Shown here piece after piece: positions 14,029 to 15,375 of a stretch of 64,000 nt of DNA. How positions within the stretch are numbered: the first letter of the stretch is position 1; every line of letters begins with the position of its first letter. The stretch is taken from the NCBI RefSeq assembly GCF_030013595.1, contig NZ_CP122768.1, one strand, 5' to 3'. Position numbers and translations under genes: made by a program. This DNA is from Escherichia coli. Lineage in GTDB: Bacteria; Pseudomonadota; Gammaproteobacteria; Enterobacterales; Enterobacteriaceae. A model generated the notes under the pieces. The model was not told where the DNA came from. It was given only the letters and a program-made list of their open reading frames with translations, and did not search any database.

Positions 14029-14037
14029 GGTTAAGTT
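14029..14037. repeat. left 9-bp target-site duplication of IS10 (GGTTAAGTT)
   Basis: Identical 9-mer directly abuts both IS10 termini. Confidence 0.85.
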
Positions 14038-14082
14038 CTGATGAATCCCCTAATGATTTTGGTAAAAATCATTAAGTTAAGG

Positions 14083-14152
14083 TGGATACACATCTTGTCA
14101 TATGATCAAATGGTTTCGCGAAAAATCAATAATCAGACAACAAGATGTGCGA
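14083..14152 (-). ncRNA. IS10 RNA-OUT antisense RNA (position inferred from the known IS10 map)
   Basis: In IS10, pOUT lies just inside the outside end and transcribes outward across the transposase translation start; coordinates derived from the element map, not from a read-off of promoter motifs. Confidence 0.4.
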
Positions 14153-15353
14153 ACTCGATATTTTACACGACTCTCTTTACCAATTCTGCCCCGAATTACA
14201 CTTAAAACGACTCAACAGCTTAACGTTGGCTTGCCACGCATTACTTGACTGTAAAACTCTCACTCTTACCGAACTTGGCCGTAACCTGCCAACCAAAGCG
14301 AGAACAAAACATAACATCAAACGAATCGACCGATTGTTAGGTAATCGTCACCTCCACAAAGAGCGACTCGCTGTATACCGTTGGCATGCTAGCTTTATCT
14401 GTTCGGGCAATACGATGCCCATTGTACTTGTTGACTGGTCTGATATTCGTGAGCAAAAACGACTTATGGTATTGCGAGCTTCAGTCGCACTACACGGTCG
14501 TTCTGTTACTCTTTATGAGAAAGCGTTCCCGCTTTCAGAGCAATGTTCAAAGAAAGCTCATGACCAATTTCTAGCCGACCTTGCGAGCATTCTACCGAGT
14601 AACACCACACCGCTCATTGTCAGTGATGCTGGCTTTAAAGTGCCATGGTATAAATCCGTTGAGAAGCTGGGTTGGTACTGGTTAAGTCGAGTAAGAGGAA
14701 AAGTACAATATGCAGACCTAGGAGCGGAAAACTGGAAACCTATCAGCAACTTACATGATATGTCATCTAGTCACTCAAAGACTTTAGGCTATAAGAGGCT
14801 GACTAAAAGCAATCCAATCTCATGCCAAATTCTATTGTATAAATCTCGCTCTAAAGGCCGAAAAAATCAGCGCTCGACACGGACTCATTGTCACCACCCG
14901 TCACCTAAAATCTACTCAGCGTCGGCAAAGGAGCCATGGGTTCTAGCAACTAACTTACCTGTTGAAATTCGAACACCCAAACAACTTGTTAATATCTATT
15001 CGAAGCGAATGCAGATTGAAGAAACCTTCCGAGACTTGAAAAGTCCTGCCTACGGACTAGGCCTACGCCATAGCCGAACGAGCAGCTCAGAGCGTTTTGA
15101 TATCATGCTGCTAATCGCCCTGATGCTTCAACTAACATGTTGGCTTGCGGGCGTTCATGCTCAGAAACAAGGTTGGGACAAGCACTTCCAGGCTAACACA
15201 GTCAGAAATCGAAACGTACTCTCAACAGTTCGCTTAGGCATGGAAGTTTTGCGGCATTCTGGCTACACAATAACAAGGGAAGACTTACTCGTGGCTGCAA
15301 CCCTACTAGCTCAAAATTTATTCACACATGGTTACGCTTTGGGGAAATTATGA
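14145..15353 (+). CDS. IS10 transposase
   Basis: 402-aa ORF MCELDILHDSLYQFCPELHLKRLNSL… recognised as the Tn10/IS10 transposase; ATG at element nt 108. Confidence 0.95.
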   Translation: MCELDILHDSLYQFCPELHLKRLNSLTLACHALLDCKTLTLTELGRNLPTKARTKHNIKRIDRLLGNRHLHKERLAVYRWHASFICSGNTMPIVLVDWSDIREQKRLMVLRASVALHGRSVTLYEKAFPLSEQCSKKAHDQFLADLASILPSNTTPLIVSDAGFKVPWYKSVEKLGWYWLSRVRGKVQYADLGAENWKPISNLHDMSSSHSKTLGYKRLTKSNPISCQILLYKSRSKGRKNQRSTRTHCHHPSPKIYSASAKEPWVLATNLPVEIRTPKQLVNIYSKRMQIEETFRDLKSPAYGLGLRHSRTSSSERFDIMLLIALMLQLTCWLAGVHAQKQGWDKHFQANTVRNRNVLSTVRLGMEVLRHSGYTITREDLLVAATLLAQNLFTHGYALGKL

Positions 15354-15366
15354 GGGGATCTCTCAG

Positions 15367-15375
15367 GGTTAAGTT
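15367..15375. repeat. right 9-bp target-site duplication of IS10 (GGTTAAGTT)
   Basis: Identical to 14029..14037. Confidence 0.85.

Follow-up and report, generated by a model that had tools for sequence, protein, structure and literature searches.

An IS10 element stands between cedA and ydjO in the 64-kb stretch of Escherichia coli DNA analysed here (the window), and it raises the question of what event placed it there and what its presence says about the strain. The initial annotation regarded it as a complete solo IS10 that had arrived by a bona fide and probably recent transposition, and took it as a pointer to a Tn10-exposed lineage or a laboratory strain. The most probable reading of our results, with a confidence of roughly 93%, is that a single intact IS10-right, probably competent for transposition, entered the AT-rich spacer between cedA and ydjO by standard cut-and-paste transposition in a wild lineage of E. 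coli. The insertion is most likely neutral, a polymorphism confined to this strain. Both the element and its mode of transposition are already known, and the insertion site is specific to the strain.

Boundaries and target-site duplication of the element

The element was complete, with a length of 1329 bp and both inverted repeats, which were the only two IS10 ends in the window, and all coordinates assigned to it earlier were found to hold. Its boundaries were the following.

14029-14037: left target-site duplication, GGTTAAGTT, abutting the IS10 end
14038-15366, plus strand: IS10-right, 1329 bp, complete, with one mismatch to the IS10R of R100
14038-14060, plus strand: outside-end terminal inverted repeat, matched by the end pattern
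15344-15366, minus strand: inside-end terminal inverted repeat, matched by the end pattern and containing the second Dam site
15367-15375: right target-site duplication, GGTTAAGTT, abutting the IS10 end

The first letters of the element were CTGATGAATCCCC... at 14038 and the last were ...GGGGATCTCTCAG at 15366; taken at greater length, it starts with CTGATGAATCCCCTAATGATTT... and closes with ...AAATTATGAGGGGATCTCTCAG. A degenerate pattern for IS10 ends matched the 64-kb window twice, at 14038-14059 on the plus strand and at 15345-15366 on the minus strand, where shuffled sequences were expected to give 0.00 matches. The outside and inside ends agreed at 17 of their first 23 positions, the imperfect match normally seen between these two ends in IS10, and the size of ~1.33 kb with imperfect inverted repeats of ~23 bp (outside CTGATGAATCCCC..., inside CTGAGAGATCCCC...) was likewise that of IS10. 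On the basis of established IS10 biology, we take the outside end at 14038-14060 to be the site of transposase binding and cleavage.

The identical nonamer GGTTAAGTT directly adjoined both ends of the element, so that the perfect 9-bp duplication described earlier was borne out; the probability that a given 9-mer recurs at exactly the right offset is ~4^-9. A third copy of GGTTAAGTT was present at 60571-60579 on the minus strand, with 0.44 copies expected per window, and it is a chance match.

Identity with IS10-right and functional parts

The functional parts located within the element were the following.

14145-15353, plus strand: IS10 transposase gene, 402 aa, intact, from the list of open reading frames
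14083-14152, minus strand: RNA-OUT antisense RNA gene, IS10 nt 115 to 46, Rfam RF00240
14067-14079, plus strand: IHF-like site AATCATTAAGTTA, IS10 nt 30-42, agreeing with 8 of the 9 specified positions of WATCAANNNNTTR
14104-14107: Dam site GATC, IS10 nt 67, position read from the sequence
15357-15360: second Dam site GATC, in the inside end, IS10 nt 1320

Comparison with both IS10 copies of Tn10 (R100), a check proposed in the initial annotation, gave a single mismatch to IS10R (1328 of 1329 nt identical) and 16 mismatches to IS10L. The only difference from IS10R was a synonymous one at nt 203, where the window has A and both R100 copies have C. The A variant was common to the solo IS10R copies of strains BM28 and Br_112, which were 100% identical to the window copy, and 100% matches to the element were present in many plasmids. 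The transposase, reported earlier as intact with 402 aa, was identical to the IS10R protein (0 amino-acid differences, vs four to the IS10L protein) and had the DDE triad D97, D161, and E292 in place. It scored 404 bits on the IS4-family equivalog NCBIfam NF033591 (cut-off 152) and matched Pfam DDE_Tnp_1 (PF01609) with E = 2.4e-24. Judged by its sequence, the copy is clearly of the IS10-right form and not of the IS10-left form.

RNA-OUT was detected at full length with 98.8 bits on Rfam RF00240 (gathering score 41, E = 7.9e-21). It overlaps the transposase ATG at IS10 nt 108, and its transcription from pOUT heads for the outside end and, beyond it, cedA. Its extent in the window agrees with the published RNA, which is 69 nt long, ends at nt 47 and pairs with the transposase mRNA through its first 35 nt (PMC5006887). 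A generic scan for promoters and terminators was uninformative, since it returned fewer promoter-like sites than shuffled sequences and failed to pick up the known promoters pIN and pOUT, and RNA-OUT and pOUT were therefore placed by Rfam and the literature. The site AATCATTAAGTTA is putatively the outside-end IHF site, an assignment that we presume from the IS10 literature. GATC occurred in the element at nt 67 and nt 1320 only. One lies in the pIN -10 region and the other in the inside end, and these are the two sites at which Dam methylation exerts its control of IS10, as is known in part from PMC5006887 and in part from general IS10 background; the overlap of the GATC at nt 67 with the -10 region of pIN belongs to the published part (PMC5006887). 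All known functional parts of IS10R are intact in the window copy, and an intact sequence of this kind suggests that the copy would be capable of excision and transposition.

A solo element rather than an arm of Tn10

IS10 usually travels within Tn10, and the window copy has the form of the active IS10R arm, both of which would be expected if it belonged to a composite transposon as one of its arms, whether of Tn10 or of a resistance module flanked by IS10. A composite Tn10 consists of two inverted IS10 copies flanking tetR-tetA-tetC-tetD and jemA-C over ~9.1 kb, and this arrangement was not found in the window. When the whole 9,147-bp Tn10 of R100 was compared with the window, only its two IS10 arms matched, both at one locus, and DNA of tetR, tetA, tetC, tetD, or jem was absent from the 64 kb. 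A second pair of IS10 ends was also absent from the 64 kb, which extend 14 kb beyond the element on the left and 48 kb on the right. In addition, the GGTTAAGTT duplication brackets a single IS10, so that what transposed was the IS by itself. A composite Tn10 was rejected on these grounds, namely one pair of ends and no cargo in 64 kb; the composite reading is refuted for this window, and the chance that it applies is practically nil. The earlier description of the element as solo was thus upheld.

Empty site, junctions, and age of the insertion

For the empty site, a 1000-bp query was used in which the flanks were joined with a single GGTTAAGTT. HCP5S3_I2 and LCP30S3_I5, which are UK pig faecal isolates, matched it at 100% without a break, and 4,256 of the 5,426 complete E. 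coli genomes contained at least 80% of it at a single place. The exact 80-bp empty site was found in three related genomes (L001, L008, and L009, including HCP5S3_I2), and alignment showed that GGTTAAGTT was also single at the site in MG1655, BM28, and Br_112, in agreement with the empty site foreseen in the initial annotation. Over 5.6 kb, the flanks differed from those of HCP5S3_I2 at only 4 positions. The presence of the empty site in so close a relative means that the insertion postdates a very recent common ancestor.

The junctions gave a consistent picture. Neither the left nor the right junction (300-bp queries) had an exact match in any of the 5,426 complete E. coli genomes, and the exact left junction was likewise not found among GTDB species representatives or metagenome contigs. 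Among the 23 longest contigs with the identical YdjO allele, cedA was directly upstream in 23 of 23, and a transposase gene lay between the two genes in none. Far from being common to all E. coli, a case that the initial annotation had raised, the exact insertion was present in 0 of the 5,426 complete genomes. The perfect duplication, the identity of the IS with copies elsewhere, and the absence of the junctions together argue for a young, strain-specific insertion, and the exact empty site in near-identical relatives, taken with the perfect duplication, sustains the earlier view of a bona fide transposition.

An artefact would imitate some of these features. IS10 hops into clones in E. coli hosts are a documented contaminant of databases, and such a hop in an IS10-bearing host (of the DH10B type) would leave the same perfect 9-bp duplication; a repeat misplaced by the assembler is the other form of this explanation. 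That the junctions occurred in no other public sequence searched is what an artefact would predict. Misassembly, however, would not precisely duplicate 9 bp that are single-copy in relatives, and an event in a single clone would normally be outvoted in the consensus. A genuine insertion is nothing unusual, since IS10 occurs naturally in close relatives and in 30% of complete E. coli genomes. An artefactual origin is accordingly considered very unlikely, and a real insertion is retained.

Host background and frequency of IS10

The flanks were 97.5% identical to MG1655 (137 of 5,492 nt mismatched) vs 99.93% identical to the pig isolate HCP5S3_I2 (4 of 5,662 nt mismatched), and from 33.3 to 58 kb the window shared 99.9% identity with HCP5S3_I2 and LCP30S3_I5. 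The window was collinear with HCP5S3_I2 except for mobile DNA. These comparisons point to a host of natural-isolate lineage, related to pig faecal isolates and not derived from K-12. A laboratory or K-12 origin was rejected from the two mismatch counts.

The frequency of IS10 was determined with a 1-kb internal probe against the 5,426 complete E. coli genomes. IS10 was present in 1,607 of them (~30%) at 6,005 places, most of which (4,228) were chromosomal; the positive genomes had a median of 2 places and a maximum of at least 45, and 3,172 plasmid records contained the element. Because IS10 occurs in ~30% of E. coli, its presence marks no unusual lineage, and the suggestion of a Tn10-exposed lineage or laboratory strain did not survive the comparison of the flanks and the census. 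The lineage has met IS10 or Tn10 only in the trivial sense that applies to roughly a third of sequenced E. coli. The result corrects the assumption that IS10 is a sign of a laboratory or Tn10-mutagenised background.

Several other differences between the window and its relatives were observed. In the osmE-chbB spacer (window ~5626-5633), HCP5S3_I2 has a ~0.7-kb IS200/IS605 tnpA insertion right after the osmE terminator, where the window is uninterrupted. After the ihfA terminator (window ~33400-33410), HCP5S3_I2 and LCP30S3_I5 carry a ~37.5-kb P2-like prophage, whereas the window lacks it and continues into core genes. That prophage contains an IS10 with an IS10L-type transposase (WP_001352368.1), and the copy indicates that IS10 variants circulate in the lineage. 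The window from 33300 to 58000 corresponds to NZ_CM149870.1 2423714-2449594 in three pieces, and the relative is ~1.26 kb longer there, a sign that the two genomes may differ by a further small insertion or IS. The chbR gene (window 8045-8887, plus strand) is an intact 280-aa open reading frame in the window and is annotated as frameshifted in the 99.9%-identical HCP5S3_I2. Between yniD and thrS, at 23628-25526 on the minus strand, an intact 632-aa open reading frame is the gene annotated as EspL1 (a type III secretion effector) in HCP5S3_I2; it is not listed in the MG1655 annotation of the yniD-thrS interval, a further sign of a non-K-12 background.

Neighbouring genes and possible effects of the insertion

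The genes surrounding the insertion were the following.

11161-13422, minus strand: katE, on the same strand as pOUT
13605-13868, plus strand: cedA, context gene, from the open reading frame and the annotation of the 99.9%-identical locus
15495-16298, plus strand: ydjO, context gene in the same orientation as the transposase, from the open reading frame and the annotation of the 99.9%-identical locus

The insertion lies in the cedA-ydjO spacer, as was noted earlier, where the G+C content is 33%, and it interrupts no coding sequence; neither of the two neighbours is an essential gene. The cedA stop codon ends at 13868, and 169 nt separate it from the first IS10 base, in line with the 170 bp given before. 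The distance of 117 bp to ydjO was appropriate for the longest open reading frame, which begins at an upstream in-frame ATG at 15483, 116 nt after IS10, but not for the annotated start, since the RefSeq annotation of the identical gene places the ATG of the 267-aa protein at the equivalent of 15495, 128 nt past IS10. Transcription of the transposase gene proceeds in the direction of ydjO, and with the outside end turned to cedA, pOUT is directed antisense into cedA, with which it is convergent, and then toward katE.

With this geometry, the insertion might be real but selected, either through pOUT transcription running antisense through cedA and then, in the sense direction, into katE or through the separation of ydjO from silencing or regulatory DNA upstream. 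Read-through from pOUT can activate genes adjoining Tn10 or IS10, a known effect that would suit this explanation, and pOUT/RNA-OUT (14152 to 14083, minus strand) does point at cedA (plus strand) and katE (minus strand). However, a promoter-like match still lies between IS10 and ydjO (15443-15470), although it is a consensus match only and weak evidence, and RNA-OUT normally ends at nt 47 (PMC5006887). The exact insertion was seen in no other genome, with no sign of spread or of recurrence at the exact site.

Other strains provided a further point in favour of selection, with two other IS10 sites within 1 kb, occupied in the same orientation. Three IS10 insertions were found in these strains at the two sites, so that three IS10 sites, including that of the window, fall within ~2.1 kb. 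In BM28, BM28 lysU, and Br_112_kylling, an identical IS10R was inserted at the same base inside ydjO and disrupted the gene (3785-5131 in L002 and L003), at codon 175 of 267 in BM28, ~640 bp beyond the window insertion. The duplications were TGCTTAATA in BM28 and BM28 lysU and TGCTTAATG in Br_112_kylling, each matching the allele of its own host, and TGCTTAATG is present, unoccupied, in ydjO of the window at 16012-16020. BM28 and BM28 lysU are heat-evolved MG1655 derivatives, and Br_112_kylling is a Brazilian isolate. The BM28 insertion is one of the solo IS10R copies that spread in an MG1655 derivative carrying Tn10 (PMC10044804). The Brazilian hit is therefore independent, and the base in ydjO is a recurrent IS10 target site.

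The second site was found in 2017.06.05CC (human faeces, Viet Nam), where an IS10L-like copy in the same orientation lies at the cedA stop codon with the duplication GACTGAGTA (L010 1322-2650). This copy differed by 2 nt from IS10L and by 14 nt from the window copy, and its site corresponds to window 13859-13867; the annotated cedA CDS is 267 nt in that strain vs 264 nt in the window. From 4,228 chromosomal places in genomes of ~5 Mb, ~0.9 IS10 places per 1.1 kb are expected by chance, and three independent events were observed, with clonal redundancy uncontrolled. Enrichment of IS10 at cedA-ydjO was considered and is not claimed, as three events vs ~0.9 expected are not a significant excess. 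Selection on the insertion is therefore judged improbable. A similarly slight chance is given to a non-neutral insertion that alters the expression of cedA, katE (an RpoS-dependent catalase), or ydjO, with the cedA-ydjO segment serving as a recurrent, tolerated, or favoured landing zone of IS10. A neutral, strain-specific polymorphism remains the preferred reading.

Proposed mechanism

The mechanism of IS10 and Tn10 is described in the literature of Kleckner and Haniford, and NGCTNAGCN is a target that IS10 prefers but does not require. The target core in the window, GTTAAGT, agreed with GCTNAGC at 4 of 6 specified positions, a moderate match; only 3.9% of the 7-mers in the window score at least as high. 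For the window copy, the DDE transposase would have cut a donor IS10, residing on a plasmid, in Tn10, or elsewhere in a chromosome, free by double-strand cuts at both ends. The excised element would then have captured a target related to NGCTNAGCN and joined its 3' ends to it with a 9-bp stagger, after which gap repair would have duplicated GGTTAAGTT. Cut-and-paste transposition, the 9-bp duplication, and the target consensus are all documented for IS10 (PMC10044804). Once resident, the copy would be expected to remain nearly silent through the weak, Dam-sensitive pIN, through Hfq, and, if several copies are present, through pairing of RNA-OUT with the first 35 nt of the transposase mRNA, in accordance with the regulatory model of IS10 involving RNA-OUT and Dam (PMC5006887).

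The insertion provides a clean strain-specific marker, which could be used for typing or for tracking the lineage. A resident IS10R of the active type would also leave the strain permanently liable to gene disruption, deletions, and inversions caused by IS10, as in the BM28 expansion (PMC10044804).

Comparison with known IS10 elements

The closest reference is the IS10-right of Tn10 (R100, NC_002134 43950-45278; tetD-proximal), which shares with the window copy the same 1329 bp, transposase, ends, RNA-OUT, and both Dam sites. The window copy differs from it in being solo instead of an arm of Tn10 and in the one synonymous change at nt 203. The IS10-left of Tn10 (R100 36132-37460) is of the same family and length and is 98.8% identical to the window copy, but 6 of the 16 nt that distinguish them fall within the first 107 nt, in the end and promoter region, and its protein differs from the window transposase at four residues (V266I, L381S, A389T, and A398V). 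The activity of IS10L is very low (PMC10044804).

Judged by its label, ISVsa5 differs in name only. The RefSeq label of the identical protein WP_001339197.1 is "IS4-like element ISVsa5 family transposase", and in PMC4036041 the heading for ISVsa5 is "IS4 family, IS10 group". The solo IS10R copies of BM28 (ydjO::IS10R) and Br_112_kylling have 100% the same sequence and the same orientation as the window copy; theirs are inside ydjO, whereas that of the window is intergenic.
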